DNA of 64,000 nucleotides from an uncultured Balneola sp. (lineage in GTDB: Bacteria > Bacteroidota > Rhodothermia > Balneolales > Balneolaceae), in NCBI GenBank assembly GCA_913058495.1, contig CAJXQC010000001.1, positions 60,779-124,778 on the forward strand, in the 5' to 3' direction. Positions 15,348 to 38,133 of this stretch are shown in pieces (position 1 is the first letter of the stretch; the number at the start of each line of letters is the position of its first letter). The translations under genes and the position numbers were made by a program. The notes under the pieces are model-generated. The model saw nothing but the letters and a program-made list of their open reading frames with translations, made no database searches and was not told the origin of the DNA.

Positions 15348-15363
15348 AAATAAATAACAAGCT

Positions 15364-16041: not shown

Positions 16042-16043
16042 AA

Positions 16044-17183: not shown

Positions 17184-17293
17184 TCGGAATTGATCATTCA
17201 TGAGTTTATTTGGTATTTGAAATATAATTTGAGTATTTAAAATGGATAGAAACTACGTTTATTCAAACGATTAATCACAATTCGGGGGAAATC

Positions 17294-18813: not shown

Positions 18814-18844
18814 GGGTATAAAGGCTAATTTAGGTTAATAAGGC

Positions 18845-19664: not shown

Positions 19665-19668
19665 GGGG

Positions 19669-19902: not shown

Positions 19903-19918
19903 GGGTTATCAGGTTAGG

Positions 19919-20305: not shown

Positions 20306-20311
20306 AGTGTT

Positions 20312-22288: not shown

Positions 22289-22296
22289 ATATGAGG

Positions 22297-22875: not shown

Positions 22876-22876
22876 C

Positions 22877-23290
22877 TCAGCTCGTCCAGAAGATTTCGGT
22901 TACTAGCGCTTTGGACTCGTCTCCGGGATTCGTCGCCTCATCCCATAGCCCCATAAAGCCGCCTTTGTAGAGCTCGCCGAACCGGCGTAGATCAAAGTGC
23001 AGGGTTTCACCCGCCCGAAGTTTGAAGGTGTAGTACTTGTCCGAGATGCGCTGGCTGTCTAGGGCAATCATCAGTTCGCCTTCGCTGCTGTTTTGGATGA
23101 TCACCCCCAACCGGTGCGGGTTTTCGTTGACCAGGCGAACGGGCTGCACGCCCTGTTTCATCACCGGGGAAATGGAGGAGGCAATTCGAGCTTGACTGGG
23201 CTGGCTGCCTTGCGTTTTTTGCAGGTTTGTAACCAGCGCTTCCACGTTGGCGGCCAGCTCGCAAAGCACTTTAATCAGTTCGTTGAGCAT
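22877..23290 (-). CDS. Putative single beta-sandwich minor capsid/penton protein
   Basis: N-terminal coiled helix then NPHRLGVIIQNSS...KLRAGETLHF all-beta domain; directly downstream of the capsid candidates. Confidence 0.4.
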   Translation of the reverse strand: MLNELIKVLCELAANVEALVTNLQKTQGSQPSQARIASSISPVMKQGVQPVRLVNENPHRLGVIIQNSSEGELMIALDSQRISDKYYTFKLRAGETLHFDLRRFGELYKGGFMGLWDEATNPGDESKALVTEIFWTS

Positions 23291-23292
23291 AG

Positions 23293-24069
23293 CTACTCCG
23301 CTGGGATGAATCCGGTTCTTATCTGCACGTAGCTCTCACAAAGGAAACTTACCTCGGCAGGCTGGGCACCATAGTTGGAAGCGTACACGTCAAACGGCAC
23401 GTTCGAGCCCACCACAAAGGGTACGTTGATGTACTTGTCGTTGAACTCGTCGTTCACCTGCTCCAGGAATACTTCATCGCGAACCGTGGTGTTGTACACT
23501 TTCATCGAAGCGGTAATAGCTCCTGGCTGGTTACTGCTCATGGCCATGCGCCGAACCTGAACGTCCACGCTTTTGCTTTTCACGCCCAGATCAATGTTGA
23601 GCCCGCCAGCTGGAACCGTGCTATGGCCATACAGGAACCGGGGCACGGGAATCGAAGCTCCAATCTGCTGGTAGGCCGCATTTAGTTTGGACAGGGCAAA
23701 CTGGTCATAACCGACAATCTGAATGTTTACCGTTTGCTTAGCAGCACCGGTATTGGTGAGTTCAAAAACGATATGGTTGTTCTTTTGAATGATAAAAGGA
23801 GCAAATAGTCCGTCAATAGATTTGAACAGATTGTGCACTACCGAGAGCTGGACGCCCCGAAACAGATAAAGGTCTTCGTTTAGACGAGCGGAAATCAAAA
23901 TGGCATTCATGTTGGCGCTGAACGGGAGAATCTTTCGGATGCCGTAGCGCTCTCCACCCATGCCGTTCATGGTAAGGTGAGCCGTTGCTCCCGGTTGCAC
24001 CTCAACCGATTTGGCCGGATTGTAAGCTGAACTTTCTTTAGGAGGTAAAAAATTGGAGAGTATCTTCAT
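23293..24069 (-). CDS. Putative double jelly-roll capsid protein (tandem duplicated beta domain)
   Basis: Halves align: VQPG/VPAG, GIRKI/QVRRM, PFIIQKN/PFVVGSN, TNTGA/SNYGA, IQIVGY/FLCESY; size similar to small DJR capsid proteins. Confidence 0.55.
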   Translation of the reverse strand: MKILSNFLPPKESSAYNPAKSVEVQPGATAHLTMNGMGGERYGIRKILPFSANMNAILISARLNEDLYLFRGVQLSVVHNLFKSIDGLFAPFIIQKNNHIVFELTNTGAAKQTVNIQIVGYDQFALSKLNAAYQQIGASIPVPRFLYGHSTVPAGGLNIDLGVKSKSVDVQVRRMAMSSNQPGAITASMKVYNTTVRDEVFLEQVNDEFNDKYINVPFVVGSNVPFDVYASNYGAQPAEVSFLCESYVQIRTGFIPAE

Positions 24070-24101
24070 GGTGTTGCTTTGAGGTAGTCAGGATTACTTG
24101 G

Positions 24102-24143
24102 AAAAAAGAATCCCGCCGGAATCAGCGAACTGAAACCGGCGGG
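24102..24143 (-). terminator. Intrinsic terminator after the 203-aa capsid candidate
   Basis: CCCGCCGG-N16-CCGGCGGG stem, then ATTC and a T6 run on the minus strand. Confidence 0.75.
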
Positions 24144-24153
24144 TAGGGATGGA

Positions 24154-24765
24154 TTACTCAACTTCAGCGACTACCATGGAAGCCCTGAGCCACAACTCTC
24201 CCTGACCGGATTGGTTCCAGTTCTCTGTGGTTGGGAACACTGAGGCGTCATCAAAATGGACGGCAAGGGAAACCGTCTGGTTGATGGCCAGATCAAACGG
24301 ATCGGCCAGGCGGTACTCACTGGCAGATTTCATGGTAACAAGCCGGCGATACTCGGCTACGGCGTCAACGGTATTATTGGTGGCCGAGGTAAACTGAATA
24401 CCGGTTCCAGCAAAGTTGGAGAACTCACTCATGGGAGCGCGGAGGAATTCCTTGTTGTCGTTATCGGCCTGAAGCAGAATGGCCGCGTCTTTGAGCCCGT
24501 TCACGATGGCGCGTGCATCGATGCCATTGGCTGGATCGTCTTCAATAAATTGTTTGGTGAGTTCAAAGGATAGGCCCAGAATCCGGCGTTTCATAGCTCC
24601 GGGAAACGGGTTACTTACATAGTTGTCCCGCGTTAGTTTTCGATCTGCATTAGCAGGAAAGAAATTAAGGACTGATTGATTTTGCTGTACTTTGCGTGTG
24701 TCAAAATAGGTCTTGATGCGCGCAGTAGCTGGAACAAGTGCTTTTTTGGAGATTTTATCGCTCAT
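24154..24765 (-). CDS. Putative single jelly-roll major capsid protein
   Basis: YFDT...LNFF...DN...PFP...RILGLSF...PFDLAIN beta-rich pattern; shares PFx[ILV]xxN with both halves of the next gene; followed by a terminator. Confidence 0.5.
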   Translation of the reverse strand: MSDKISKKALVPATARIKTYFDTRKVQQNQSVLNFFPANADRKLTRDNYVSNPFPGAMKRRILGLSFELTKQFIEDDPANGIDARAIVNGLKDAAILLQADNDNKEFLRAPMSEFSNFAGTGIQFTSATNNTVDAVAEYRRLVTMKSASEYRLADPFDLAINQTVSLAVHFDDASVFPTTENWNQSGQGELWLRASMVVAEVE

Positions 24766-24856
24766 AACTGTGATTTAAAAGGTTTAGAAAATGGCTGATA
24801 GCCGGTTTGGTATTACCAGTACCCCTTTTGCAATGCAGAGCTATGAGGTGTTATTT

Positions 24857-25360
24857 CTAGACTTCGATGGTATTATCAACCTCTAAAGAATGTTCTACCT
24901 CATCCACATGGTGTGTTTTTTCCTGGATTTCAGGCAGGTTGTCATACACGTACCCGGAGCCATCCATAAGACCTTGCTGGGGTGTCCAGTCAGGGGTAAT
25001 AAATTTGATGACTTCCATTACGCCTTGTACGCCCATACCCATGGCCAAACCGCGAACGTGTTTGTTTTTGGAAAGGAGCGTTAGAAGTACTCCAGCGGTG
25101 AGAGGGATACCTGCTCGGGTGGCTTGTTGAATAGTTGCTGAGGCGTTGCCTGTCAGCAAGGGGACGGCCAGGACATTCATCTGGGCTGCCACCGCTTGTC
25201 CACCAAGAATATATCCGGCGGTGATAGCCTGCTGCTTGAACTCAGAGACCGCCTTCTCGGTAGTGATTTTGCTTTCTGTTATCATATTACTGCGTCGTTT
25301 GTTTGGGTTTTCGATGATTTGTAGCTCGGAAGGGTTCTTGGCGAACACGCGCTCTTTCAT
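24857..25360 (-). CDS. Virion membrane protein candidate
   Basis: Several Gly/Ala-rich hydrophobic segments; N-terminal NP motifs; directly upstream of the capsid candidate. Confidence 0.5.
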   Translation of the reverse strand: MKERVFAKNPSELQIIENPNKRRSNMITESKITTEKAVSEFKQQAITAGYILGGQAVAAQMNVLAVPLLTGNASATIQQATRAGIPLTAGVLLTLLSKNKHVRGLAMGMGVQGVMEVIKFITPDWTPQQGLMDGSGYVYDNLPEIQEKTHHVDEVEHSLEVDNTIEV

Positions 25361-25388
25361 AGGTGCCTTCGTTGTTCTGGCGGGTGGC

Positions 25389-28300
25389 TCAATTAAGAAT
25401 GCCCCTGCCGTCTATGTTGACGTTAGCGATGATGTACACATCACCGTATTTAAACACCGGTCGCTTGCCCGCATCGAAGTAGTGGAAATAGTGATTGTCT
25501 TTGCCTTTTTCGTCATCGGCGTAGATAATCTTATCGCTCACGTACATAATGCGGTCGGCATAGCCGGCACTGATCAGTTTCTCGCCTAAAGGCGGAAACA
25601 GCTCATAATCGTAGTCATCTGCCGGGAAATGATGAAACTCCTCAAACATTTCGGCGGCTTTCGGGTCATTGTAAGCTCCCTTGGAGAGCCTCATTAAACT
25701 GGTTGGAAACACATAAATAGTGGTGCCTTTGGCGTTGATGATCATCGCCAGATCATCAGATTCGGCTTCCACGCGCTGCATGTAGCCCTTGGCGTCGATG
25801 TACTCCAGTTCCTTGACGATGCCGGAATAGACCAGTGGTTCTTCATAGAGGGTTTTGAGTACGCCGTGTCGTTTGGTGGTTTTTGCAGGCACACTGTCCG
25901 CCTTGTTCTCACGAAGTTGAGGCGATCCTTTGGGTGCACTGCCTTTTAGCGAACCCACATCACGGACAGTGATCGTTTTGCGGATCTTGTATTTCGGGGC
26001 GATCCGGTTGATCTCTTCATACAGCTCGTTCCGGTCATCGTAGCTCACCGCCACCAGCTGGTTGACCACATCGTTGAGTTCGATCACGGTCTTCTGATTG
26101 TTTTCGCTTGCGGTTTTAGACGCTTCCAGCTCTGTTTTGGTATCTGCCAGCACCTTTTGAAGTTCAGCCAGCGTTTTCTCGGTCTGCTTTAATTCACTGC
26201 TTAGCAGTTCCATGCGGGACTGGGAGGTTCTGATCCACGCTTTTTCGAGTTCCAGGAATAGCTCCGCCAGTTTTCGGGTGATAATCGGCTGCCACTTTTT
26301 GATGGTAAACATCCCGGCGGACTCTTTGATGGCCTTGAAGCTTTGCTCGTTTCCAACCTCGTCTTTTTTGGCCTTTTCGGCTTCGATGTCGATGCCGTAT
26401 TCCGCGTAAAAATCTTCCTCCGTGGCAATGATGTTGCCAAGGTTGCCGGAGATGGATTTGCCCTGTCCGGTCTTTTCTTCCAGCGTCCACCCGAAGGCAG
26501 TGGCCAGCTCTTTGGAGGCCATACGTTTGATGGAACCCCACGTCTGCTTGTTGTAGAACGAGCGGTCAGGGATATTGCTGTCGGGGATCAGGTGAAACCA
26601 TACCCGCCCGTTGGCATTGTTTTCGGGCACGTCCAGCACGGTTTTCATGCGGTAGCCGGAAATGCGTTTGGAGTCGGAGCTAAGCTGGATATCGAGCTGG
26701 TACGGCTCGCCGTTCCACCCGTACTGCACGTCTAACAGGTTCTCCTTTAACGCTTTTTCAGCGCTTTCGGGAAGCTTTGAGTTTTGTAAGGCCGATTCCC
26801 GCTCTACCACGCTTTTCATGCGATCCTGTTTTCCCTGGATATCGGTGGTCGCCTGCGCTTGGCTGGCTTGGAGTCGTTGCACTTCAGATTCCAGGTTGTC
26901 AATCCGGTCATCGAGTACGTTCTTTTGAGCTAAAGCTTCGAAAAATTGTTTTACTCGCGGATCGGAGTTGGTCGCGGCTACCATCTGCTCGTATTCCAGT
27001 GACTCCGAGTCGCCACCCGTGGACACTTCACGCACGGTGCCAAAGAACAGGTCATCAATCCAGCTCTGTTTTTTGGAGACCAGTTCCAGCCGGTACTGAT
27101 CAAAGGAGTCCTGCATTAGGTAGTAGTGAATCTGAACTTCCCCATACTGATTCCCCTGACGAAGCCCGCGCCCGTTGCGCTGCTGGATTTGCGAAGGCGT
27201 GTAGGGAACGTCCATGTGGTGCATGTCGGTCGTCCACTTCTGAAGGTTCATCCCCTCGGCAATCGACTGGTTGCCAATTACCACCCGGTACTTACCCTGG
27301 TTGAAATTGTCCTGCACTTCTTTCTTAAGCGCTTCCTTGTCGTCTTTGCTACTCACGGAGTAATCATCCCCGTTTTTGCTCGTGCCAATGATAGACCCGT
27401 TGATGATCGCAATCTGCTCTTTGGGGATTCCGGCTTTGACCAGCTCGGATTTGATGAGCTGATGGAAACTACCTCCCTGAGACTGATGAAGGCTGATCCA
27501 GTCGCAGAATATAATCTGGTTGCGAATAGCAGGGCTGGCTGGATTGGATCGGCTTGCTTTGATCTGCTCCCATTCTTTATTGAGCTTATGGGCGCGTTCG
27601 GTAGCTTCTTTTTCGTTGCCAAAGATGCCTTCGCTCCATGTGTGTTCTGGTTTTTTGGGCTCCAGTATATGCAGGGGCTCATACACTTCTTTCTTTTCAT
27701 CCCAGACCACCCAGTAGCCGCTCTTTTCTTTTACCACACCCTTGCTGGTAATGACCTCAATATGGGATGGGTTCTCCCGGAGGTGCGGAGGAGTCACGGC
27801 AATCTGTCCTCTGCCTGGCCGGTGAAAATAGTCGCCGTATAGGTCTTCCGGCACCATTTCGGGAGCGGGATTGGAACGGGCCCCGTAGGAAGCGGCCACG
27901 TTTTCGACCATTGCTCCAAGCTTGAGGTAGGATCGGTCGATACCTTCAAAATCCTTGTCGTACACCCGCAGGTCGGTCGCAATTTTGCTGCCATCGCCGG
28001 TAATTACAAGAAAGTTGTCGCGGGTTTCGCACTGCCGTTCTTTCATGCAGGCGATGACCTCGTTGGCCCGGAGGATAATGTCATCAAAAAGAAGCTTATG
28101 CAGCTCGCTGGGCTCAATAATCACGTTTCGGGTACTGGCCTTGGGGCGCTTGAATTTGGGTTCGAGCACCTTGGGTTTTCCATCCTTGCCATTGACCGTT
28201 TTACCGTCCTCATCCTGAATATAGTCTGGGAATTCCTTGTAAAAACCAATCAGCTGATCGTAGCTCTTGATGTCCATTACCTCGTCAATGATCTTGCGCA

Positions 28301-31300
28301 TTTCCGGCAGGTTGTAGTACCCGGCCACCACACGCTCGGAGCGGTATTCTCCGTTGGTCTTTTTGACGATCTTTTCTTCTTCCCGGACAAACAGGTTAAT
28401 GAAGTTATCGAGGTTTTCAATTTCGTATTTGGCCAGCAGATCCGGGGCGCATAGGTTAAGCATGTGCCACACCTCTACCGGAGAGTTCACGACCGGGGTT
28501 GCGGTAAGCACAAACACGTTTTTATGGCCCACTTTGCTGAACAGCCACCGCGTTTTTTGCAGGGTGTCTTCGGCTCGCTGGGAAGGCTTGTTCGCCGAGA
28601 TTCCCAGCTTGGCGGCTTTGGCCGAACCCAGGGCGTTTTTGTAGAAATGCGCCTCGTCAAAGAACAGGCAGTCCACGCCCAGCTCGTCAAAGAAAATATC
28701 GGTTTCAAGGCGCTTGGAATGCGCCACATTGCGGAGCTTGGTTTCCCATTCTTCCATCTGCTTTTCCATGCGTTTCATCATGGAGGTTTTGGCCGCTTTC
28801 GAGATGGCCTCGTCTTCTTCAAGCAGGTCCTCAAAATTTTCCAGCATTTGGTTGAAGTAGTCGATGCGCTCCTGGTAAATACGAGCCTGCTCTGCCGGAG
28901 ACAATGGAAGTGATTTAAAGGCGTGGTCGGCGATAAAGATAGCGTCCCAGTTGTAGAGCTGGGCCATCGTAAGTTCTTTATGCTTGTCTCCACCGGCCAT
29001 TTTCATGTTGAGGACTTTGGCGTCTGGAAAGAGCATCAGGTATTCTTCCACCCATTTTTCCTGCACTTTGCCGGGCACGACAAACATCGGTTTTCGGGCG
29101 GCTCCCTGCTGGAGGAGCACTTGGGAGGTGATAATGGAAGCCAGCGTTTTTCCGGCTCCCACATCGTGGCAGTTGGCACCTTTGCCGTTCCACACCAGCT
29201 TTTCGGCAATGGCGCGATTGTGCTTGTACACGGTAAAGTCTTTCACCCCGTAAAAGGTGTCGCTCATGCCTCGAACCCGAAGGGTGCGCCCGTCAAAAGG
29301 CGGGTTGATCACCGCGTTATAGGTATGGTTGTAGGCGGCCTCGATCATGCCTCGGACTTCGGAGGAAGCTTTGGTGCGCACCCAGTTGTTGAACTTTTTG
29401 GGCACGTGCGTAAGCATCCGGTTGTTGTTCTGGCGCTGTATTTTTCGCGCCCGTTCGATGAGCATCTGACCGCGTTCTCCCTTCATGGATTGCGCTTCTT
29501 TGAGCGTCATAGACGGCATGAGGTTGTCGTCCTCATCATAGAATTTCAGCGGAAAGGTGCTGTCCTGAATGTACGAGGTAATGATTTTGGTAAATGGCGT
29601 CTCGCCCCAGCCCAGGTTGTTGTCGTCGGGGGTTTCATCGCCCGTGCCCACATAACGGCCCCATTTCCGAAGCTTCATGTAGAACCGGTTGCCGAGCTCG
29701 GCTTTGTCTTTGACAAGGCCGATTTCCACTTTGTCGTAGTTCATTTCATCTTTGATCCACTCTTCAATGGCTTTGGCAGGCAGGTAAGTAAACACGTGCT
29801 GCGGGTCCACGGTAATGTTGTACACGTCGATCCATTCGGGCACCACCTCTTGTAGCGCCTTGATGTTCTTTTCCAGCTCGTGCTCCTGGGCCAGTTGCAG
29901 TTTCTCGCGCACGTTACCCGAGAGGTACTGGTAGCGAAATTCGTGGTTTGACGTGGCCGGATTCCAGTAAAAGTCAGGGTGATCTTCCAACGCTTTTTCC
30001 AGCTCCTCTTTGCTGGTCGTGCCCCCTTTGTACACCGATTGGTAGAAGTCAAGATCTAAGGTCTCACCAATACTGCGCCCGAACATGGCCAGCTCAGCCA
30101 AATCGTCAGAATCCTTTACCGCAGGCACATAGTTGCGATTGAACATAGAATCGGCGTCGATGATGTCGGCGTGCACCAGCTCTCCATTAAGCGGATCTCG
30201 TTTCACAAGGGTCGTGAGCTTGTAAAGCCGGTTGTCAAACTTGAACACCTTGCGAATGTCTTCGTCTTCATCGGGAACCCCGTACTGCTCGATGTGACCC
30301 GATAAAAGCTGCTTGAATTCAGCACGGAGGGCGTCTTTTTCGCTCGTTTCCTGCGCCAGTGCGGTTATATAGTCGTCGTATTTGTCCAGCAGCTGACAGG
30401 CCGATCGGGTGCGCGCCTCCAGTCCGGAGCCGCCTTTGAGGGTAAGCCGCTTGAAAAACCGTCGCTGTTTCTCGTAAAAATGGTTCTCATGGAAGACGAT
30501 ATTTCCCGGATGGTACGACCTTGGCAGGTTAAGCATAATGCCATCATCGGGAATGTTGTACAAGGGCATCTCGACCGGAAGCGAGTAAGGAAAAGTCAGC
30601 CCGTCAGAAAGCACGGAGTTAATAACAGATTCAGAAAGTTCACCTTTCACTCCCATACGGGAATAAAACTGTACGTGGTGCCCCTGAATATGCTCACCCA
30701 ACACGTGGTTTGGGTGTTCTTTATAGTACGGGTTGTAAGAAGCGGTATAGGTTTCACCATTATAGGAGACCTGACTTTCAATCAGCTCCTCTTGGGCAAA
30801 AAGTCGGTTGAGTTTCGAGTCCACGTCCGGATGAATGTCGCCCTGATGCTCTCCATATTTCTGGAAGAAAAGAATATCGGTAGTTACCGTGGTATCGGCG
30901 TTGTCTTTAAACGCCGTAGAAGGCAGCCGGTAGGCCCCTACAAAATGGGCGCGTTGTATCATAGCCTGACGAATGGACGGGTCTTTTTTATCCATTGTGC
31001 CCGTCGAGGTGATCACCGCCAAGAAACCACCGGGTTTAAGAGCGTCCAGGGATTTTAGGATAAAGTAGTCGTGAATGCGTGGGCTCATTGGGGCCAGCGG
31101 ATCGCGGGAAGTATGAATTTTCAGGTCCCCAAAGGGCACGTTCCCAACCACGCCAGTCAGGTTGTATAGGGAAAGATCGGTGTCGGCAAAGTTTTCGTGG
31201 CGCACGGTCTGCATTGGGTATAGCAGACTCGCAATACGGGAACTAATGGCCGAGCGTTCGATCATGACCATCCGAAACTTGTCGCGGTCGGGAAGGAATC

Positions 31301-32618
31301 CGGCAAAGTTGCCCACGCCAGCGCCTGGCTCTAAAATATTGCCACCCGTGACACCCATTAGTTGAAGCTTATCCCAAATGAGTTTGACCACGGGGTACGA
31401 GGTGTAGTGCTCATTTAGCAAGCCCCGCTTGGACTGCTCGGTGGATTCGGTGTAGCCTAACCCGCCCGCCCCGGTGTAAGAGCGGAGTAGGTCGATATCG
31501 GATTTGGTAATCGCGCGGTCTTCTTTTTGAAGCACCCCGATGGCCGCTTCGTTGGCTTTGCGACGCTCGGAGGCGGTTAGCTTGATGGGCGCAAATTCCG
31601 AAAGTTCGGTGTCGCTAAACCTAAAAGTTGATTGGCCTGATTTCTTTTTGGGCTGTTTGGCAGGTGTTGGTTTCTTAGATGTGGCTCGGTTAAATACCCC
31701 GTCAAAATCGACGCCGATGATGCGACCGTGTGCCCTGAAAAGCTCCAGGGCTTCTTCTCTATGCTCTGCCGGAAACTTGTCCAGCTGAAATGCCAAGGCC
31801 AGTTTACCTATGGTCTGCTCAAAATCTGCCTGAAGCTGTTGGAGCTCGCTGCCTGGATTAGACCGAAGGGTAAGCTGGGTTTCAAGCGCTTCCAAATCGA
31901 CCAAATAAGGTTCGAGTTTTTCCGCTGATTCGGTGTCGCCTTTGTCGGCTTTCCACGCGAGTTGGGTGAGTTCTTCCAGGAGTGCCCCGTTAAGCTGGCC
32001 CACTTTATAGGGCTGGTGCGAGGCCGCCGAAATCATGGACATCCGTTTGGTTTTAACCTGGATTTCGACCGGGTACTGCCCGTCCACTACGAGGATAAAA
32101 TGATGGGCGCGGTAGCCATTCGCTGGGTTTTTATATTTGTCTTCGTGTTCCCACACTTCGCCCAACTCGCCCGAAAGGATACGCTCCACCATCTTATCCA
32201 CCTGCTCCTGGGTTTCAGCAATGGCCATACAACCCGCCACATCGGTCAGGCCGGTAGTGTATTTTTCTCCGGCTTTGGTGGCCATTTTTTCGGTAAAGGG
32301 AAACCTTTTGCGAATGAGTTTCCCTAAAGTGGAATAAATTTCTTTAATTCGGCCCTTTACCACCAAGGCCAGATTCATAGCCAATAGCCCTTTCATGACT
32401 TTCTTTAGGGCCGGGATATAGTTGTTTTTCGCCTCAATCACGGCCTTGATCTGCGGTGCCAGTTCGGCCTCAGAAACCGGGGCGGTATCTCCCGGAGTAA
32501 GCGGGTTGGGATCATCAATATTGACAATCCCGTCGGAGTCCCAGTCGCCCAACCAGTGATCAAAGTCGCCGGTGGACAGGTGGGTAATCTGGTCGATATT
32601 TGTTTTAACTACGGGCAT
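25389..32618 (-). CDS. 2409-aa polyvalent protein: RelA/SpoT-like synthetase + N6-adenine MTase + SNF2 helicase (DarB-like) + unknown C-terminal domain
   Basis: KGRIK, DVAG, NGYRAHH, EIQVKT; LEPGAGVGNF, GNVPFG; HDVGAGKT, DEAH, LTATP, AEGMNLQ, QRNGRGLRQ. Confidence 0.85.
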   Translation of the reverse strand: MPVVKTNIDQITHLSTGDFDHWLGDWDSDGIVNIDDPNPLTPGDTAPVSEAELAPQIKAVIEAKNNYIPALKKVMKGLLAMNLALVVKGRIKEIYSTLGKLIRKRFPFTEKMATKAGEKYTTGLTDVAGCMAIAETQEQVDKMVERILSGELGEVWEHEDKYKNPANGYRAHHFILVVDGQYPVEIQVKTKRMSMISAASHQPYKVGQLNGALLEELTQLAWKADKGDTESAEKLEPYLVDLEALETQLTLRSNPGSELQQLQADFEQTIGKLALAFQLDKFPAEHREEALELFRAHGRIIGVDFDGVFNRATSKKPTPAKQPKKKSGQSTFRFSDTELSEFAPIKLTASERRKANEAAIGVLQKEDRAITKSDIDLLRSYTGAGGLGYTESTEQSKRGLLNEHYTSYPVVKLIWDKLQLMGVTGGNILEPGAGVGNFAGFLPDRDKFRMVMIERSAISSRIASLLYPMQTVRHENFADTDLSLYNLTGVVGNVPFGDLKIHTSRDPLAPMSPRIHDYFILKSLDALKPGGFLAVITSTGTMDKKDPSIRQAMIQRAHFVGAYRLPSTAFKDNADTTVTTDILFFQKYGEHQGDIHPDVDSKLNRLFAQEELIESQVSYNGETYTASYNPYYKEHPNHVLGEHIQGHHVQFYSRMGVKGELSESVINSVLSDGLTFPYSLPVEMPLYNIPDDGIMLNLPRSYHPGNIVFHENHFYEKQRRFFKRLTLKGGSGLEARTRSACQLLDKYDDYITALAQETSEKDALRAEFKQLLSGHIEQYGVPDEDEDIRKVFKFDNRLYKLTTLVKRDPLNGELVHADIIDADSMFNRNYVPAVKDSDDLAELAMFGRSIGETLDLDFYQSVYKGGTTSKEELEKALEDHPDFYWNPATSNHEFRYQYLSGNVREKLQLAQEHELEKNIKALQEVVPEWIDVYNITVDPQHVFTYLPAKAIEEWIKDEMNYDKVEIGLVKDKAELGNRFYMKLRKWGRYVGTGDETPDDNNLGWGETPFTKIITSYIQDSTFPLKFYDEDDNLMPSMTLKEAQSMKGERGQMLIERARKIQRQNNNRMLTHVPKKFNNWVRTKASSEVRGMIEAAYNHTYNAVINPPFDGRTLRVRGMSDTFYGVKDFTVYKHNRAIAEKLVWNGKGANCHDVGAGKTLASIITSQVLLQQGAARKPMFVVPGKVQEKWVEEYLMLFPDAKVLNMKMAGGDKHKELTMAQLYNWDAIFIADHAFKSLPLSPAEQARIYQERIDYFNQMLENFEDLLEEDEAISKAAKTSMMKRMEKQMEEWETKLRNVAHSKRLETDIFFDELGVDCLFFDEAHFYKNALGSAKAAKLGISANKPSQRAEDTLQKTRWLFSKVGHKNVFVLTATPVVNSPVEVWHMLNLCAPDLLAKYEIENLDNFINLFVREEEKIVKKTNGEYRSERVVAGYYNLPEMRKIIDEVMDIKSYDQLIGFYKEFPDYIQDEDGKTVNGKDGKPKVLEPKFKRPKASTRNVIIEPSELHKLLFDDIILRANEVIACMKERQCETRDNFLVITGDGSKIATDLRVYDKDFEGIDRSYLKLGAMVENVAASYGARSNPAPEMVPEDLYGDYFHRPGRGQIAVTPPHLRENPSHIEVITSKGVVKEKSGYWVVWDEKKEVYEPLHILEPKKPEHTWSEGIFGNEKEATERAHKLNKEWEQIKASRSNPASPAIRNQIIFCDWISLHQSQGGSFHQLIKSELVKAGIPKEQIAIINGSIIGTSKNGDDYSVSSKDDKEALKKEVQDNFNQGKYRVVIGNQSIAEGMNLQKWTTDMHHMDVPYTPSQIQQRNGRGLRQGNQYGEVQIHYYLMQDSFDQYRLELVSKKQSWIDDLFFGTVREVSTGGDSESLEYEQMVAATNSDPRVKQFFEALAQKNVLDDRIDNLESEVQRLQASQAQATTDIQGKQDRMKSVVERESALQNSKLPESAEKALKENLLDVQYGWNGEPYQLDIQLSSDSKRISGYRMKTVLDVPENNANGRVWFHLIPDSNIPDRSFYNKQTWGSIKRMASKELATAFGWTLEEKTGQGKSISGNLGNIIATEEDFYAEYGIDIEAEKAKKDEVGNEQSFKAIKESAGMFTIKKWQPIITRKLAELFLELEKAWIRTSQSRMELLSSELKQTEKTLAELQKVLADTKTELEASKTASENNQKTVIELNDVVNQLVAVSYDDRNELYEEINRIAPKYKIRKTITVRDVGSLKGSAPKGSPQLRENKADSVPAKTTKRHGVLKTLYEEPLVYSGIVKELEYIDAKGYMQRVEAESDDLAMIINAKGTTIYVFPTSLMRLSKGAYNDPKAAEMFEEFHHFPADDYDYELFPPLGEKLISAGYADRIMYVSDKIIYADDEKGKDNHYFHYFDAGKRPVFKYGDVYIIANVNIDGRGILN

Positions 32619-32621
32619 GGC

Positions 32622-34040
32622 TTAGCTAAGGACTTTTTCTAAAAAGGCATCGAGTTTGGCCTGGCTTTTTCGGGCGGCTTCTAGGTCTACTTCAGCCTTT
32701 GGAGGCGTCTGCTCTTTAGGCTTAGGTGCTGGTTTGGATTTCTTTACCGCCGATTTTTTCTTGGCGGTTTTCTTGGTGGGCGGAGTAGGTTTGCGCTTAG
32801 GTGTTTTCTTGGCTTTGGCTTTGCCGGTTGGCGGGCAATCCGCGGTGCCATCTTGCAACTTTTCCTGCCTCCGGTATTCTCGCGCGCCCAACACTTTCTT
32901 TGCATGATCCTGGGCCAGAATCTGTACTTCCAGATTTCCGTGCTTTTTCACCAGCTGAGCCCAGGAAGCCGCAAATCCGCCTTTGGCCCCTTCGGTGCAG
33001 ATCTGGGTTTTCAGCTCCCCGTCAATGAGCAGCTCCACGATGTAACGTTTGTTGTAGTAGTCGGGCACATAGCGAATGCTCAGTGTTGCCCGTTCGGACT
33101 CCCCGGAATGCTGTTTGGCGTAGCACGGCATTTTGGAGCCGAGCAGTGAATTCACCCGTTTCCAGGAGCGCAGTTTGTGGAGGGTATTGATTTTTTTGAG
33201 TGAGATCGTAAATGGCAACTCTACGGGATTATCGCGTGGCTCGCTGTGCGTGGGATTCATTAAATAGCTTCCTCTTTTTGAGGCCCAATGGGCTGCCTGC
33301 TGTTTAGTGAGACCAAATTCATCCTGAAAAAAGTCGATGAGTTCCTCATCAGTTGAGGTCTCATTATTAGAAAGCTGGTCTTCCACGCCTTCATGCTGGC
33401 TTTGCGTAAGCGGGGGAATAATTTTTAGAGTTTCGGCAGTGGCTAATGTGCCAAATGGAACATCGATGGCATTTAATAACTGATAGCGGTTTTTTTCGGT
33501 CTCAGCCAGTCCCTCTTTGGTTACTTTAATTTCAATGTCGCATTCGTGTGCGATACTGGTGTTGCCCTTATACTTGCCATCTTTGGTCGCATGTGCCACC
33601 ATGATGAACCCAATGCCATGTTCGCGGCACCACTGTGCCAGTTCTACCGTGGAGGCGTCTTTGGCGTCAATGACAGAAATAGAATCCAATACGCAAAAGG
33701 CAGATCTGTTTTTCAGCAGGGTTTCTTTTAGCGATGTGAGTGATTTCCACTTAGTAAAGTTCAGGTTGTTGTGGGTCGCTTTTAATCGCTTGACTCGGTC
33801 AATGAGTGTTTTACCGAAATGTTCTTCGGCTGGTATATATTCGACTCTACCGTGCTGTGCAAGAGCGTTTGCAAGGCCTAAACTGAAGGTGGACTTTCCG
33901 GCCCCTTTCTCACCCCAGATAAAGATGACGGCATTTTTCTCCGGTTCCCCAAGAAGTGTACCATAAGGTTCGGCAATCTTGATGCCTTTGATGTTTATTT
34001 TTGCCAGTTCTTTGGCGCTCAGAGTATTCTGGATGTCCAT
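32622..34040 (-). CDS. RecA/RadA(Sms)-like ATPase with Lys/Pro/Ala-rich C-terminal tail
   Basis: WGEKGAGKS Walker A, CVLDSIS Walker B, AH.TKDG...G...IAHECD, KNRY; tail KKTPKRKPTPPTKKTAKKK. Confidence 0.8.
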   Translation of the reverse strand: MDIQNTLSAKELAKINIKGIKIAEPYGTLLGEPEKNAVIFIWGEKGAGKSTFSLGLANALAQHGRVEYIPAEEHFGKTLIDRVKRLKATHNNLNFTKWKSLTSLKETLLKNRSAFCVLDSISVIDAKDASTVELAQWCREHGIGFIMVAHATKDGKYKGNTSIAHECDIEIKVTKEGLAETEKNRYQLLNAIDVPFGTLATAETLKIIPPLTQSQHEGVEDQLSNNETSTDEELIDFFQDEFGLTKQQAAHWASKRGSYLMNPTHSEPRDNPVELPFTISLKKINTLHKLRSWKRVNSLLGSKMPCYAKQHSGESERATLSIRYVPDYYNKRYIVELLIDGELKTQICTEGAKGGFAASWAQLVKKHGNLEVQILAQDHAKKVLGAREYRRQEKLQDGTADCPPTGKAKAKKTPKRKPTPPTKKTAKKKSAVKKSKPAPKPKEQTPPKAEVDLEAARKSQAKLDAFLEKVLS

Positions 34041-34041
34041 A

Positions 34042-34362
34042 TCAACGGTTCCTCATTTTTTTAGCGATCACAATTAAAGCACCGATGGCAATGCCAGCCA
34101 GAACAGCTTTGGTCAGCATGGCTTTTTTATCTGTTTTCATATTTAATGGAGCATTGGATACCCCCAGTTTTGAAAGTAGTGTTGGCCCGGCCTCTCCGGT
34201 TACCGGAAGAGAATACCTACGTTGAGCTTTCATAACGGCAGATTGGGTTTCACTTCCAAATTTTCCGTCAATACCATATTGAGGTAGATCAAATCCTGCT
34301 TTTTGCAATCCTGCTTGGAGCCTGATTACCTGTTGTCCTGAGGCGCCTTTACTGAGAGTCAT
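34042..34362 (-). CDS. Tail-anchored peptidoglycan-binding protein
   Basis: LSKGASGQQVIRLQ...L...IDGKFGSET..AV...Q...LPVTG PG-binding pattern; C-terminal TM plus KKMRNR. Confidence 0.85.
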   Translation of the reverse strand: MTLSKGASGQQVIRLQAGLQKAGFDLPQYGIDGKFGSETQSAVMKAQRRYSLPVTGEAGPTLLSKLGVSNAPLNMKTDKKAMLTKAVLAGIAIGALIVIAKKMRNR

Positions 34363-34754
34363 TTCTTCGATGTTGAGTTATACGTTCGATGTGCAAGCAC
34401 ACCTATTGTGATACCGATCAGAAGCGTAGAGCTATACTTTATCAGTGGTGATTTAGCTGAGGATGATAAAGGATCATCGGTAGTTAATTTCTTTGCCAGA
34501 GCCACCAAATCCACATACTCGAAGTAGGCGTCAATGACTCCGGCGTTCTGTTCATATACCCTGGTGATACCTGCTTTACTGGTGGTCAGGTTGGCCAGGT
34601 TGAGTCCCATCGTGGCAAGCTGGCCGCGACGACCACTTGTGGCGCTCTGAAGTTTCCCCGCAAACAGCTTAAAGGCGTTTTGCGAGGTGCGTTGCAGGTA
34701 ATCGTCCATGCCGTGTAATGCAGTACCGGTATGTGGTATAAAAGTTGATTTCAT
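34359..34754 (-). CDS. Tail-anchored membrane protein
   Basis: C-terminal LLIGITIGVLA plus basic tail; 4-bp overlaps on both sides. Confidence 0.6.
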   Translation of the reverse strand: MKSTFIPHTGTALHGMDDYLQRTSQNAFKLFAGKLQSATSGRRGQLATMGLNLANLTTSKAGITRVYEQNAGVIDAYFEYVDLVALAKKLTTDDPLSSSAKSPLIKYSSTLLIGITIGVLAHRTYNSTSKK

Positions 34755-35434
34755 TCGGCAGGTACTTTAGGAGCTAAGGCTTTTACACCCGCCCGAAGTC
34801 CAGGGAGCATGGGGGCTAAGAAATAAAGCCCCGCACCAGCAACCGATATAATGATCACCCGTTTGAGTAGCGTATTCACCTCCCCAAGGGTGTTACCCGG
34901 TCCAAGTTCGGGCATCTTGTACCACGACTCGGTGGGTGGAGAATACACCCCGGACTGCTCGCCGGTTTTCTGGTCCAGGTCGAGGGAAATGGGTGCGGAC
35001 TTTTCGATGAGATCTGAAGCGGGTAGCTTGCTTAAATCAATATCATCGGGGTACACTTCAAAAACCACTTTATGGCCCGAGGTGGGAACAAACGAACGGT
35101 CAAAAACGAGTCGTCCCTGTGCGCGGCAACCGTCCATCATCGACGTTCCGAACCGCTGGAAGCCTAATACAGACCCAGTCTGCTCCGACCGAACCACCAC
35201 AAGGGCGTCGGGGCATTGCCCCCAGCTGGCCAGAAACGGAACAAACAGCACTTTGGCCCAATTCCGGAAGGTTTCAATTTCAAGGTCAAGCGAAAACGGA
35301 ACCCCGCTGGGCGGGTTCCCCGAGGCGGGGTTACGCCCGATAATGCGAAGTTCTACAGCCTCGGAGCTTATGATATTGCTGGACAGGTTGAGCTGCCCGA
35401 GTCCGGTGTCGATATATCCTGATTGCGCGTTCAT
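34751..35434 (-). CDS. Tail-anchored beta-sandwich protein (SGY...GLG motif)
   Basis: QSGYIDTGLG; beta-rich core with two Cys; TM VIIISVAGAGLYFL. Confidence 0.6.
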   Translation of the reverse strand: MNAQSGYIDTGLGQLNLSSNIISSEAVELRIIGRNPASGNPPSGVPFSLDLEIETFRNWAKVLFVPFLASWGQCPDALVVVRSEQTGSVLGFQRFGTSMMDGCRAQGRLVFDRSFVPTSGHKVVFEVYPDDIDLSKLPASDLIEKSAPISLDLDQKTGEQSGVYSPPTESWYKMPELGPGNTLGEVNTLLKRVIIISVAGAGLYFLAPMLPGLRAGVKALAPKVPAE

Positions 35435-35435
35435 T

Positions 35436-35705
35436 TTACCTCCTTAGCAAGCGGTAGCCTACATAAAGGCCACCTGCGATTAGTAAGGTGTTCTGGTTAT
35501 CCCGAATCCACTGCGAAAGTGAAATCGGCTGCTCCTGAAGTCGCTGGCATAGTTTTTTGGCCGCAGGCTCTTCGCCTTCGCCCATTTCTATGACCTGCAT
35601 ATCCGGCTGCTCGTAAGAAGTATCTTCCGTGTCAGGCAATACCATAGGGGCATGGCCACCTGGAACGCCACCGTCTAAATACGTTGAAATTCGTCCTGCT
35701 TGCAT
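35436..35705 (-). CDS. Small acidic tail-anchored protein
   Basis: C-terminal LLIAGGLYVGYRLLRR. Confidence 0.6.
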   Translation of the reverse strand: MQAGRISTYLDGGVPGGHAPMVLPDTEDTSYEQPDMQVIEMGEGEEPAAKKLCQRLQEQPISLSQWIRDNQNTLLIAGGLYVGYRLLRR

Positions 35706-35707
35706 AC

Positions 35708-36031
35708 TTACTTCTTCAGCACTTTGAGTAGAATGATCCCACCGACTATGGCGATTCCTGCTATGCCCGCATACTTGATCAACTCTCCCGAGCCGCTGGG
35801 AGCAGGTGCGCCTTGGCCGGGATATAGCACCGGCGGTTGTCCGCCTCCAGACTTGTTTCCGCCTTTGTTGACGACCCCATCTATGGTCACCACGGTATCG
35901 GTTGCGGTCTTAAGTAAGTCGTTGATAGAGGTTAAAGCCGAGCCAAATTTGGTTTGGGTGGGCTGGGAAACGATAGCTGCTCGTTGGTTGAGAAGGTCAA
36001 AACTGGTATAACCGCTGGGTTGTTTGGTCAT
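35708..36031 (-). CDS. Small Gly-rich tail-anchored protein
   Basis: PSGY; C-terminal YAGIAGIAIVGGIILLKVLKK. Confidence 0.6.
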   Translation of the reverse strand: MTKQPSGYTSFDLLNQRAAIVSQPTQTKFGSALTSINDLLKTATDTVVTIDGVVNKGGNKSGGGQPPVLYPGQGAPAPSGSGELIKYAGIAGIAIVGGIILLKVLKK

Positions 36032-36044
36032 GGGACAGGCCTGC

Positions 36045-36467
36045 TTATTTAGAAGATTTCTTTTTTCGTTTCAGCATCAAAACCGCCAAAGCAATAGCTC
36101 CGGTAAGAGCAACTCCACCCACAGCGATACCCGACTTCATGGTCGAATTGGCTGTCTGCTGCTGGGAAGCGGTAGTGGTAAGATTGGTCTGGAGCGCCTG
36201 CATCATTTCTTCGCGCTGGCCTTCCCACTGGGCTTTCTTTTGAAGGGAAGCTTCGTGCGCTTTGCAAAGCGCCTGACTTTTCTCACGTTGACGGCGGCAG
36301 CTTTTCAGCTTGCCAAACATTTTGCCTTTACAGCTTTGGTTGGCGTACCGGCACGGGTCGGTTTCTTCCCAATTGCCCAGTCCGGGACTGATGGCCACGG
36401 CAATCACCGCATTTTCCTCTCCAATGACAGTATCCTCTAAGGGAATGATAAATCCACTTTTACTCAT
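36045..36467 (-). CDS. Cys-containing tail-anchored protein (SGF...GLG motif)
   Basis: KSGF...PGLG; four Cys; C-terminal TM plus KRKKKSSK. Confidence 0.6.
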   Translation of the reverse strand: MSKSGFIIPLEDTVIGEENAVIAVAISPGLGNWEETDPCRYANQSCKGKMFGKLKSCRRQREKSQALCKAHEASLQKKAQWEGQREEMMQALQTNLTTTASQQQTANSTMKSGIAVGGVALTGAIALAVLMLKRKKKSSK

Positions 36468-36470
36468 GGT

Positions 36471-37487
36471 CTATTTATTTAGAAGCATATACCCGCCACC
36501 AATCAGAACCAAGGTTCCAATGGCAAGACCAGCATACAGCCCCATTTTTTTGGTTTTATTTGCTGCTTGTTGTTGAGTAACCCAAACCGGGGAAAGTTGC
36601 CCGTAGCGATTCAGTTGCTGAACCGCCGGGGCACCAAGTTCATCTATAATCTGTGCGTAGCGCTGAAGTGTGGCATTATCCTTTTGGGAAAGACTGATGA
36701 CCTCGGATTGCACGCCTCGCTGCATGAGGTGATCTCGAAGGGCTCCGCGCATTTGGCGCTCACCAGAATCCTTGGCTCCAAATATGCTGGACAAGGTATT
36801 TTTTAGCGTCATCCCGGTACTGGCCATTGTTGTAGCCGTGGTGAGTAGCGTAATAGGGTCAAGCCCCAAACCTTCCGGCATCAGGTTGGTGACGTGCCTG
36901 GATTTTTTAATGAGCCGCTCATCAAATACGTAACCTGGATATTTCAGCACAGTTGTATCGAAAGATTTCCAGCCGGTAGGTGATTGGTACACCGCGTAAA
37001 TATGGTCAAAGTGACGTCCCGTTCGCGAGACAATGCGAAAGCCCGTTTGAATACCTAAGCTTTGCAGCAAGGCAGCACCTAAAATGGCATGATCATCGCA
37101 GTCACCGGCTCGCTGAGTAATGGTGACAAAGGGCGATTGAATACGCTCGACATCCCATGGGTCGCGCACGTAATTCACGTTGCGCACCATCCACTTGTAT
37201 ATGGCGGAGGCAATAGCGTCAATGTTTCGCAGGTCGGGTTGTCCGGTAAGCCGGTGTCGCCGGATTGTGCTTGTAATTTTGAGAGCAAGTGAGCGAATGC
37301 GCTCGTCGCCGGTATATTTAGTAACCAACCTGCTGGCTGCCGAAATTACGCCTTCCACACCGGGGTAGGCCTGGCGTCGTGTAGAAAGAGGTACTGTGGA
37401 TGCTTCCAAAGAAGCATCCACAGCCCGTGCTCTGGCATGTTGCTGCTGGGTATCTGGTAATATCTGTACGTAGCCACTTTGCATCAA
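36471..37487 (-). CDS. Transglutaminase-like (Cys-His-Asp) enzyme with C-terminal membrane anchor; putative maturation protease
   Basis: YVRDP...GDCDDH, FDHIYA, SFDTT triad; internal EGLG; C-terminal TM. Confidence 0.8.
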   Translation of the reverse strand: MMQSGYVQILPDTQQQHARARAVDASLEASTVPLSTRRQAYPGVEGVISAASRLVTKYTGDERIRSLALKITSTIRRHRLTGQPDLRNIDAIASAIYKWMVRNVNYVRDPWDVERIQSPFVTITQRAGDCDDHAILGAALLQSLGIQTGFRIVSRTGRHFDHIYAVYQSPTGWKSFDTTVLKYPGYVFDERLIKKSRHVTNLMPEGLGLDPITLLTTATTMASTGMTLKNTLSSIFGAKDSGERQMRGALRDHLMQRGVQSEVISLSQKDNATLQRYAQIIDELGAPAVQQLNRYGQLSPVWVTQQQAANKTKKMGLYAGLAIGTLVLIGGGYMLLNK

Positions 37488-37705
37488 CGTATCAACCCTT
37501 TGGTAAGCTGGCTAATCGAGTGGACGGGATTTTCCTTGATTCTTTTATGGGTTAAAGATGCCAATCCATATGTGGGAAAATTTTCGGTAATTAGGACTCC
37601 AATAAATTGTCCATTTCGGGTCACGGTGGTAATACTTGCTTCCTCGGCTATGGAGAACAGCTGATTTCGCAGTTGGGAGATCGTTTTAGTTTGGACTGTC
37701 CTCAT
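37484..37705 (-). CDS. Phd/YefM-like small DNA-binding protein
   Basis: ISQLRNQLFSI...ITTVTRNGQFIGVLI matches the Phd N-terminal fold pattern. Confidence 0.6.
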   Translation of the reverse strand: MRTVQTKTISQLRNQLFSIAEEASITTVTRNGQFIGVLITENFPTYGLASLTHKRIKENPVHSISQLTKGLIR

Positions 37706-38133
37706 GAGTGGGCAATTGGATTAGTTCGCGTTATGTATAGCTTCTGCAGTTCTGCAATTACATCAACCAATAGCGCTTTTTCTTCTGGTCGAAGTGAAAA
37801 AGTACCCGACCAAATGAGTAATAGGTTGGTGGCAGCACTGGCAGAGATACCGGCATAGGTCGAAAATTGCCCTGATCCATCCACTAAGGGATATATACTT
37901 TCTGCAATTCGTTTCGCGCCGATATCTCTTTCCAATGCCCTTCTGCCCAATTCAATAGCGATACTGATCCAGTCCTTGGCCGTCAAAGGTCTGTTTTCAA
38001 TGCCCTGAATGATTCCAATTTGTGATTGTATGGCCCGTACATAGGTTATATAGCGGGCCGCAGAGGGGGAGTCGATAGCCATAAAATCCAAAGCAGCCTG
38101 TATTAATTTTTGATAGGGGAAGTGCATGCTCAT
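37702..38133 (-). CDS. Hypothetical alpha-helical protein
   Basis: 4-bp overlaps with both neighbours. Confidence 0.6.
   Translation of the reverse strand: MSMHFPYQKLIQAALDFMAIDSPSAARYITYVRAIQSQIGIIQGIENRPLTAKDWISIAIELGRRALERDIGAKRIAESIYPLVDGSGQFSTYAGISASAATNLLLIWSGTFSLRPEEKALLVDVIAELQKLYITRTNPIAHS

Follow-up and report, generated by a model that had tools for sequence, protein, structure and literature searches.

An FtsK/HerA-type packaging ATPase and a vertical jelly-roll capsid protein are the hallmark genes by which the PRD1-adenovirus lineage (Varidnaviria) is traced, and the locus described here raises the question of which enzyme may fill the place of that ATPase when a RadA/Sms-like protein is found among the structural genes. 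The locus lies in a 64,000-nt stretch of DNA, here named the window, from an uncultured Balneola sp. (contig CAJXQC010000001.1, positions 60,779 to 124,778), within a provirus homologous to the phage SSIP-1. An initial annotation, made from the sequence of the window, had placed in a structural block an open reading frame (ORF) with RadA/Sms-type and not FtsK/HerA-type motifs; we recovered this ORF with exactly the same boundaries on the minus strand (Table 1), and the structural block proved to be the virion module of an element resembling a tailless, membrane-containing phage. By homology to SSIP-1 gp40, of which it is the orthologue, the product of 472 amino acids (aa) is predicted to be the virion ATPase of a temperate icosahedral virus that contains a membrane, resembles SSIP-1 and is integrated in the chromosome of a member of the Balneolaceae, and its first 197 aa are predicted to form a catalytically intact RadA/Sms-type ATPase domain of the RecA superfamily. 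From the biology of RadA and the gene context we propose, with our confidence divided about evenly, that it may act as a hexameric DNA translocase at the virion vertex, having displaced the FtsK/HerA motor.

The RadA/Sms character of the domain was borne out by alignments, profile searches and structural comparison. We used an alignment of 25 homologues (A1) and one of 11 very diverse ATPase-domain sequences (A3), in which the invariant residues are G48-K49-S50-T51, E72-E73, R85, D119-S120, K153, G159, K183 and R185, with N184 also invariant in A1; the RadA/Sms motifs are kept in homologues down to about 30% identity. The E72-E73 pair sits at the position of the catalytic glutamate of RecA/RadA-type enzymes, suggesting by analogy with the family that it is catalytic. 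KNR is kept across homologues (as KNRY, KNRF, KNRL or KNRH), the final G of the RadA motif KNRFG is not kept, and SSIP-1 gp40 deviates at this position. When the A1 profile was compared with the PDB, RadA of S. pneumoniae (5lkm, 8rxc) was matched with an E-value of 4e-20 over aa 7-194, RecA came next at about 1e-3, and no FtsK/HerA chain was returned. Consistent with this, hhalign aligned A3 to the RadA of the same genome with 99.3% probability over 170 columns (E 7.5e-21; E-values against such single-sequence templates are rough). An AlphaFold2 (AF2) model with a predicted local distance difference test score (pLDDT) of 76 was compared with the PDB by Foldseek, and RadA ranked first, with a root-mean-square deviation (rmsd) of 2.6-3.6 Å over 188-219 columns, followed by Twinkle, KaiC, UvsX, RAD51C, RecA and T7 gp4; in the viral library BFVD, the matches were DnaB-like, SF4, primase-helicase and RecA proteins. 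Pfam returned only sub-threshold P-loop matches (AAA_25 at 26 bits, Pox_A32 and KaiC), and the PHROGs match was phrog_6891, 'ATPase' (4.9e-31).

The sub-threshold Pox_A32 match raises the possibility that the protein is a packaging ATPase of the FtsK/HerA (A32-like) kind, so divergent that its likeness to RadA is one of appearance only. The Pox_A32 model (PF04665, cut-off 22.8 bits) gave 22.0 bits by hmmscan, 23.7 bits in a search of the whole genome, where it matched this ATPase only, and 25.5 bits for one homologue (P0021), but the model is promiscuous, as it also matches 7 of 14 control genomes. Likewise, hhalign gave A3 a partial match to P23-77 ORF13 (95%, E 2e-8, 116 columns), and one homologue is named 'ATPase/DNA packaging protein' by NCBI; against this, the E-value of the RadA match is lower by 12 orders of magnitude, the match extends over the entire domain with KNR included, and the probabilities for PM2 P9, FtsK and PRD1 P9 fall to 21%, 5% and 2%. 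No FtsK/HerA, A32 or B204 structure was among the best 50 Foldseek matches in either the PDB or BFVD. The Walker B motif of FtsK/HerA enzymes is hhhhDE, with the catalytic glutamate beside the aspartate. D119-S120 aligns with the D-E of the P23-77 and PRD1 packaging ATPases, so that the window protein has 'DS' and a distal glutamate pair in place of 'DE'. The weak similarity to A32 and P23-77 is best explained by features shared among additional strand catalytic E (ASCE) ATPases and by the promiscuous Pfam model, and we regard a disguised A32-like enzyme as highly improbable.

We also searched for a packaging ATPase elsewhere in the element. A six-frame scan with the Walker A pattern [AG]xxxxGK[ST] found a lone canonical P-loop in the real ORFs of the element, GEKGAGKS at 33891-33914, and the SNF2 domain of the neighboring protein has GAGKT, which departs from the strict pattern; the earlier statement that this is the only P-loop besides SNF2 is thus correct. 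Scans of the window element, nine relatives and SSIP-1 gave as candidates only the ATPase and a P-loop protein of about 920 aa, the latter a primase/helicase according to phrog_6088 (3e-41) and its CHC2 and Toprim motifs. Across the whole genome, the FtsK_SpoIIIE model (PF01580) matched chromosomal FtsK only, and Pfam and PHROG scans recognized no ATPase among the remaining proteins of the element. A divergent FtsK/HerA enzyme elsewhere, the first of two findings that the initial annotation had named as contrary to its proposal, was therefore not seen in the element, its nine relatives or SSIP-1, nor was one of the A32 type.

The second such finding was a grouping with ordinary chromosomal RadA. 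As RadA is the nearest family and the BFVD neighbors are DnaB-like and SF4 helicases, the gene could be imagined to be the chromosomal repair gene of the host or the replicative DnaB-like helicase of the element. However, a canonical radA gene of 445 aa lies on another contig and encodes an N-terminal C4 zinc finger (CSNC...CPSC) and a C-terminal domain, both of which are missing from the viral ATPase: its ATPase domain begins at about aa 7 with no zinc finger, and no Lon-protease-like domain follows, as Pfam gave no match past aa 197 and the RadA alignment stops at the end of the ATPase domain. In a search of 401 Bacteroidota genomes with a hidden Markov model of the family, members scored 230-290 bits and chromosomal RadA proteins 81-90 bits, so that the protein stands apart from chromosomal RadA. 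Among the 21 genomes of the genus in the class-wide search, one other carries a copy, a distant fused form, and 19 have none. Moreover, the element has its own primase-helicase module, whose 771-aa protein is homologous to the ~920-aa primase/helicases of relatives, while the ATPase gene lies within the structural operon and its orthologue gp40 is a virion protein. Both roles are barely plausible in our view.

The assignment to a virus comes from the comparison with SSIP-1. The ATPase and gp40 share 35% identity over aa 7-210 (blastp E 4e-36; tblastn 5e-22; 1.5e-34 in the pairwise BLAST of the virion module), and the order gp34-36, gp40, gp43, gp44-47 and gp54 is retained, the whole virion module being common to both elements. 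SSIP-1 is a tailless, membrane-containing T=49 icosahedral phage of PRD1-type architecture with two major capsid protein types (PMC6356626, PMC6260650, PMC4958249) and a circular double-stranded DNA (dsDNA) genome of 44 kb (PMC6260650). In its GenBank record (NC_017983) gp40 is annotated as 'structural protein', which is the sole basis for virion presence and concerns gp40 only, and gp40 was listed as a predicted packaging ATPase from its Walker motifs (PMC4124505). The 203-aa and 258-aa proteins of the window are candidate capsid proteins, as judged from the literature and from their homology to structural proteins of SSIP-1. The ATPase gene lies between the membrane-protein genes and the genes of a giant protein and of the capsid candidates, a location found also in SSIP-1 and in 9 + 31 related loci.

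The limits of the provirus were approximated from base composition and from element-free relatives. G+C is 49-52% across about 20-38 kb compared with about 31-44% in the flanks, and homology to element-free relatives starts at about 44141, next to a tRNA-Met gene at 44142-44216, which the provirus adjoins on its 5' side. No integrase or recombinase was recognized in the window element, the sampled relatives have no homologue of the SSIP-1 integrase gp13, and no convincing direct repeats that could be att sites flank the element. A repressor region is also present.

The family is common in Balneolaceae, with members from Gracilimonas, Fodinibius, Aliifodinibius and Rhodohalobacter. A search of 400 genomes of the class detected the ATPase in 34, the gene of the 258-aa capsid candidate in 33 and both in 32; the three discordant genomes, which carry one of the two alone, have it at contig edges, giving co-occurrence in 32/32 informative genomes. 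Nine whole elements and SSIP-1 share as their core the gp34-like protein, the gp35- and gp36-like membrane proteins, the ATPase, a protein ending in a domain that we name RGILN after its last residues, the two capsid candidates and the transglycosylase. The ATPase is an invariant gene of the capsid module in SSIP-1-like proviruses. ATPases 92-99% identical to that of the window occur in other genera of the family (G246, G101, G023, G232, G242, G041, G065), and these near-identical copies, together with the near absence of the gene from the window's own genus and the 50% G+C of the element against lower flanks, fit a recent horizontal spread of an active virus.

Downstream of the ATPase gene, the 2409-aa giant has a PHROG match to DarB-like antirestriction proteins (8e-172), and its C-terminus matches gp43. 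The TAA stop of the ATPase lies 3 nt ahead of the ATG of the giant, suggesting that the two are translationally coupled. The C-terminal RGILN domain of the giant was modeled by AF2 as all-beta (pLDDT 86.5, predicted template modeling score 0.82), and Foldseek found no PDB neighbor (best E 0.16, TM < 0.2); it also occurs as a stand-alone protein of 166 aa or fused directly to the ATPase, and we consider it a candidate capsid-docking domain. A penton-like or jelly-roll vertex fold was considered for it and received no support from Foldseek against the PDB, and a scan of IMG/VR with this domain returned SSIP-1 itself only. A scan of one genome per species with the RGILN domain gave 31 loci. In all 31 as fetched, where the contig is long enough, the ATPase is always followed by the cargo, the cargo by the RGILN domain and this, after about 1.4 kb, by the capsid gene. 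The cargo between ATPase and RGILN domain is highly variable (0-2300 aa). It consists of RelA/SpoT, methyltransferase (MTase) and SNF2 domains (DarB-like) in the window element and of ArdC-N and MPTase, with or without ddrB-ParB, in others, where one chain of 774-1736 aa holds all three parts, ATPase, cargo and RGILN domain. At the lower end, a 353-aa protein (P0097) consists of ATPase and RGILN domain with zero cargo, and in one locus (L069) the two are adjacent genes with no enzymatic cargo between them.

This association with polyvalent proteins supports a different reading, in which the ATPase is a DNA-escort or early-function factor, a stand-alone SMS/RadA form that sits on the genome, is carried passively into the capsid and enters the next cell with the DNA. 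There the ATPase, working as a clamp or as a helicase for branch migration, would join the DarB-like giant in helping to circularize, recombine, integrate or protect the incoming DNA, and no dedicated packaging ATPase would be needed. An 'SMS/RadA domain' has indeed been described in polyvalent proteins of Bacteroidetes, linked mainly to conjugative elements and plasmids, with a proposed role in post-entry manipulation of incoming DNA (Iyer et al. 2017, PMC5512222). The ATPase is either coupled to such a protein, as in the window, or fused with its cargo (G099, G031, G166, G145, G226), and 6/55 remote homologues carry MPTase-PolyVal, ddrB-ParB and ArdcN. A recombination helper would also be useful to elements in which no integrase was recognized. 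We regard this escort role as the main rival of the translocase and as rather less likely. The ATPase is the one polyvalent domain kept without exception across the SSIP-1-like elements, the minimal forms have an ATPase and an RGILN domain with no effector cargo, and a lineage with capsid-enclosed dsDNA would be left without a packaging enzyme.

RadA-like ATPases outside the SSIP-1-like elements bear on the same point. In other Bacteroidota (L024-L034), a giant with RadC, C5-MTase, MutS-I and Strawberry-notch helicase domains is followed by a protein of about 500 aa with a C-terminal RadA-like ATPase, and in two loci a large serine recombinase lies beside this pair. These neighborhoods, in which neither capsid genes nor an RGILN domain were found, favor the escort role. 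No Pfam tra or capsid family was recognized near these ATPases. On the other hand, the non-SSIP ATPases form a separate, lower-scoring group (90-145 vs >230 bits), with the domain in C-terminal position. We surveyed the best 144 representatives (50% identity) of the ATPase domain among 1.8 billion proteins: the domain is N-terminal in 63, of which 20 have the RGILN domain and 16 the middle domain described below, and C-terminal in 76. All examined cases of the N-terminal type go together with an SSIP-1-like capsid module. For one homologue of the C-terminal type, the contig search yielded a contig of 1.9 kb only.

The remainder of the ATPase protein consists of a linker, a middle domain, a tail and a terminal helix. 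The three short helices of the linker are confidently modeled by AF2 and not conserved. At its end, the motif RxNP, just past the ATPase domain, is found in 9/9 related elements. The motif occurs 6 times in the structural proteins of the window against 0.6 expected, and 27 times in the ATPase and giant proteins of nine relatives against 1.5 expected, an enrichment of about 10-18-fold over shuffles, with 0/2000 shuffles reaching the observed count in both sets. The window sites are at 33225-33236, 31854-31865, 27867-27878, 27768-27779, 27540-27551 and 37717-37728, and the relatives are loci L004-L021. As RxN[PG] is also found ahead of the RGILN domain, the position of these motifs at module boundaries suggests proteolytic separation of the modules, and RxNP is likely a processing site for a virion protease.

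The middle domain is present in 17/144 representative homologues and absent from SSIP-1 gp40. We found no Pfam or credible PDB match for it, a profile search of the PDB giving weak compositional matches to histone H2B and PrsA (E >= 0.0016). A zinc site considered in this domain was rejected because distant homologues do not keep its Cys and His residues. Forms without the middle domain have the motif C-x(8-10)-[QD]C[KR]A[IM]FAxL right after RxN[PG], then a charged low-complexity spacer and the terminal helix (L001, that is SSIP-1, 24775-25737; L010, 4290-5273; P0079).

The tail had been described as histone-like and rich in K, P and A. Its composition agrees with this description: of 54 residues, 17 are K, 11 P, 7 A and 7 T, for a net charge of +14. 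P0079 and the G120 and G142 homologues carry comparable basic stretches. One could therefore suppose that no motor exists, that the disordered basic tail condenses the genome while capsid and membrane form around it, and that the ATPase merely organizes or condenses DNA; the circular SSIP-1 genome (PMC6260650) would suit such an assembly. However, the charge is not conserved: the spacer ahead of the terminal helix in SSIP-1 gp40 is strongly acidic (D/E-rich), fused forms have no tail, and the invariant part of the protein is the catalytic ATPase core, not the tail. The acidic spacer and the tail-less fused forms weaken the proposed condensing role, and we consider assembly without a motor quite unlikely. 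Spacers of Balneolales relatives are basic; SSIP-1, with its acidic spacer, infects a halophile. An analogous terminal helix is found in SSIP-1 gp40 and in the G120 and G142 homologues, and what is conserved in the tail region is a disordered spacer that leads into an amphipathic helix at the C-terminus. A ParB-like insert, suspected in the tails of some homologues, received no support from Pfam.

Taken together, these observations allow a model of how the proposed vertex translocase might work. RadA is a hexameric DnaB-type helicase and a DNA-encircling translocase; PDB entry 8rxc, with 'coordinating dsDNA' in its title, shows RadA around dsDNA. The ATPase domain of the window protein would assemble as a similar hexameric ring, with a pore lined by KNR[YF] gripping the DNA, and the RGILN domain or the C-terminal helix would dock this ring at a capsid vertex. 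ATP-driven translocation would then bring the viral genome into the membrane-lined procapsid, the RadA-type ring being a non-orthologous replacement of the FtsK/HerA motor, and the ATPase would be retained in the virion, as is PRD1 P9. Cleavage at RxNP after the ATPase domain would probably free the ATPase from its tail or cargo, and after this separation the cargo would be delivered together with the DNA. Four observations speak for this model: the ATPase is an invariant core gene, while the features of the polyvalent arsenal vary or are absent; it is the sole packaging-ATPase candidate in the elements examined; gp40 is in the virion, like PRD1 P9; and the gene occupies the same slot as the FtsK/HerA ATPase in P23-77, where the ATPase is followed by two small ORFs and then by the small and the large major capsid protein.

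Several points weigh against packaging. To our knowledge, no dsDNA virus packages its genome with a RecA/RadA-type ATPase. Fusion to ArdC-N, MPTase or ddrB-ParB cargo in many elements is typical of DNA-delivered proteins, and the related RadA-like ATPases that lie by polyvalent giants with no detectable capsid genes are clearly not packaging capsids there. The capsid candidates showed zero similarity to P23-77 VP16 and VP17 by hhalign, and the circular genome of SSIP-1 is awkward for portal-type packaging. Finally, the published assignment of the SMS/RadA domain is to DNA processing after entry (PMC5512222). A motor and an escort are not exclusive, and a motor staying on the DNA could also carry cargo into the cell. 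In its widest form, the proposal is that in the SSIP-1-like lineage, whose proviruses are widespread in Balneolales and Rhodothermia, a RadA/DnaB-type ring replaced FtsK/HerA as part of a three-part unit of ATPase, exchangeable injected cargo and capsid-docking domain, separated at RxNP, with the motor doubling as a loading platform for anti-defence proteins; we put this forward tentatively, as a possibility toward which we lean less than halfway.

The coordinates of the features and the matches of the other structural genes are collected in Table 1.

Table 1. Features of the SSIP-1-like provirus and of its ATPase gene (positions in the window).
Feature	Position	Strand	Basis
SSIP-1-like provirus, approximate extent	18547..44140	-	G+C, tRNA-Met, element-free relatives; left limit from gene content
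Whole ATPase gene, 472 aa, ATG start	32622..34040	-	ORF; orthologue of SSIP-1 gp40
RecA-superfamily ATPase domain (predicted), aa 1-197	33450..34040	-	RadA profile match, hhalign, Foldseek
Walker A GEKGAGKST, aa 43-51	33888..33914	-	G48, K49, S50, T51 invariant in A3
Glu pair E72-E73 after strand 2	33822..33827	-	Invariant in A3; aligns with RadA GEES motif
Walker B strand FCVLDS, aa 115-120, 'DS' type	33681..33698	-	D119 and S120 invariant
HATKDGKYKGN, aa 150-160, counterpart of RadA GHVTKEGxxAGP	33561..33593	-	K153, G155, G159 invariant
KNRY, aa 183-186, counterpart of RadA KNRFG pore motif	33483..33494	-	Aligned to KNRFG
Variable linker, aa 198-268	33237..33449	-	Inserts differ among homologues (A1)
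RDNP, aa 269-272, RxNP boundary motif, candidate processing site	33225..33236	-	R, N, P, V invariant in A5
Middle domain, aa 273-393	32862..33224	-	Conserved in A1 and A5; pLDDT 75-90
Disordered K/P/A/T-rich basic tail, aa 397-450	32691..32852	-	Composition; pLDDT <50
Amphipathic C-terminal helix, aa 453-471	32628..32684	-	Conserved in A1; helix in AF2 model
2409-aa polyvalent protein (RelA/SpoT, N6-MTase, SNF2 helicase)	25389..32618	-	Pfam; orthologue of SSIP-1 gp43
C-terminal all-beta domain of ~150 aa ending ...RGILN	25392..25841	-	In SSIP-1 gp43 and all related elements
203-aa homologue of SSIP-1 structural gp45 and gp46, capsid candidate	24154..24765	-	blastp 1e-15 and 3e-8; in 9/9 relatives
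258-aa homologue of SSIP-1 structural gp47, capsid candidate	23293..24069	-	blastp 1e-10
Transglutaminase-like cysteine-protease-fold protein, homologue of structural gp34	36471..37487	-	Transglut_core 5.6e-8; blastp 5e-34; in all relatives
Replication module: 771-aa helicase-like protein and 254-aa CHC2 primase zinc-finger protein	39653..42732	-	Zn_ribbon_DnaG 1e-31
227-aa protein vs SSIP-1 gp35			BLAST 1e-3
131-aa protein vs SSIP-1 gp36			BLAST 2e-5
2409-aa giant vs C-terminus of gp43			BLAST 5e-8
167-aa protein vs SSIP-1 gp44			BLAST 4e-8
Transglycosylase vs SSIP-1 gp54			BLAST 5e-26

Other genes of the window were recorded as well. The gp33-like gene, 400-490 aa in relatives, corresponds here to two ORFs of 250 aa and 143 aa with a 4-nt overlap (37702-38882), of which the 143-aa part alone matches the C-terminus of the protein of the relatives, so that the gene may be split or partly replaced. 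Immediately left of the provirus, a low-G+C (31-35%) island of defence type at 8411-17201 carries a Type ISP restriction-modification enzyme, a second methylase-type protein that is Eco57I/MmeI-like, a Fic/DOC and SocA(Panacea) pair and a DUF2513 protein, and genes for mercury resistance (MerA-like, MerT, ArsR) are clustered at 5.5-8.2 kb.

With respect to what was already known but absent from the initial annotation, namely gp40 as a virion protein with a predicted packaging role (PMC4124505) and the SMS/RadA domain of polyvalent proteins (PMC5512222), four points were not found in the literature searched: that the 'packaging ATPase' of the SSIP-1 type is of RadA/Sms and not of FtsK/HerA type; that proviruses of a sizeable lineage invariably carry a RadA-type ATPase; that SMS/RadA polyvalent proteins of the N-terminal type are products of an SSIP-1-like virus lineage; and that ATPase, cargo and a docking-like domain, whose fold has no PDB neighbor, form one modular unit. 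If the vertex translocase is real, a packaging motor can be displaced by a different superfamily of ASCE ATPases, a second RecA-like packaging ring would be added after that of cystovirus P4, this time for dsDNA, and it would be explained why profile searches for A32-like ATPases miss SSIP-1-like elements. The 'SMS/RadA polyvalent proteins of Bacteroidetes', linked until now to conjugative elements, are re-assigned, in Rhodothermia at least, to tailless membrane-containing viruses, and the modular design with RxNP sites could show how tailless virions load large effector proteins.

Among known systems, bacterial RadA/Sms (5lkm, 8rxc) shares with the window ATPase the Walker A motif, the EE pair after strand 2, the 'DS' Walker B, HxTK(D/E)G and KNR(F/Y), with a Foldseek rmsd of about 3 Å; the window protein differs in having neither the zinc finger nor the Lon-like domain, in not conserving the G of KNRFG and in being virus-encoded, at about 27% identity. 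The polyvalent SMS/RadA domain (PMC5512222) belongs to the same ATPase clade and is likewise fused or adjacent to polyvalent proteins, but it was ascribed mainly to conjugative elements and plasmids, whereas the N-terminal type described here goes with capsid modules. PRD1 P9, PM2 P9, P23-77 ORF13 and STIV2 B204 are, like the window protein, small ASCE P-loop ATPases encoded at the same position relative to the capsid genes. P9 is associated with the virion, as is gp40, and for the window ATPase this association is predicted by homology to gp40. In contrast to FtsK/HerA packaging ATPases, the window protein is of the RecA/RadA superfamily, with a 'DS' Walker B and long C-terminal extensions or effector cargo. 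A precedent for a RecA-like motor is the P4 protein of cystoviruses (phi6, phi12), a RecA/DnaB-like hexameric ring that is the packaging motor and is kept in a membrane-containing virion; P4 differs in packaging single-stranded RNA into the procapsid of a double-stranded RNA virus. The closest counterpart is SSIP-1 gp40 itself, which at 320 aa has no middle domain, an acidic spacer and DRR/KSR in place of KNR, and which is separated from gp43 by gp41 and ORF42. Nevertheless, it shares with the window ATPase the conserved ATPase domain, an end formed by a disordered spacer and an amphipathic helix, and the same neighbors, gp34-36 upstream and gp43 and gp44-47 downstream.

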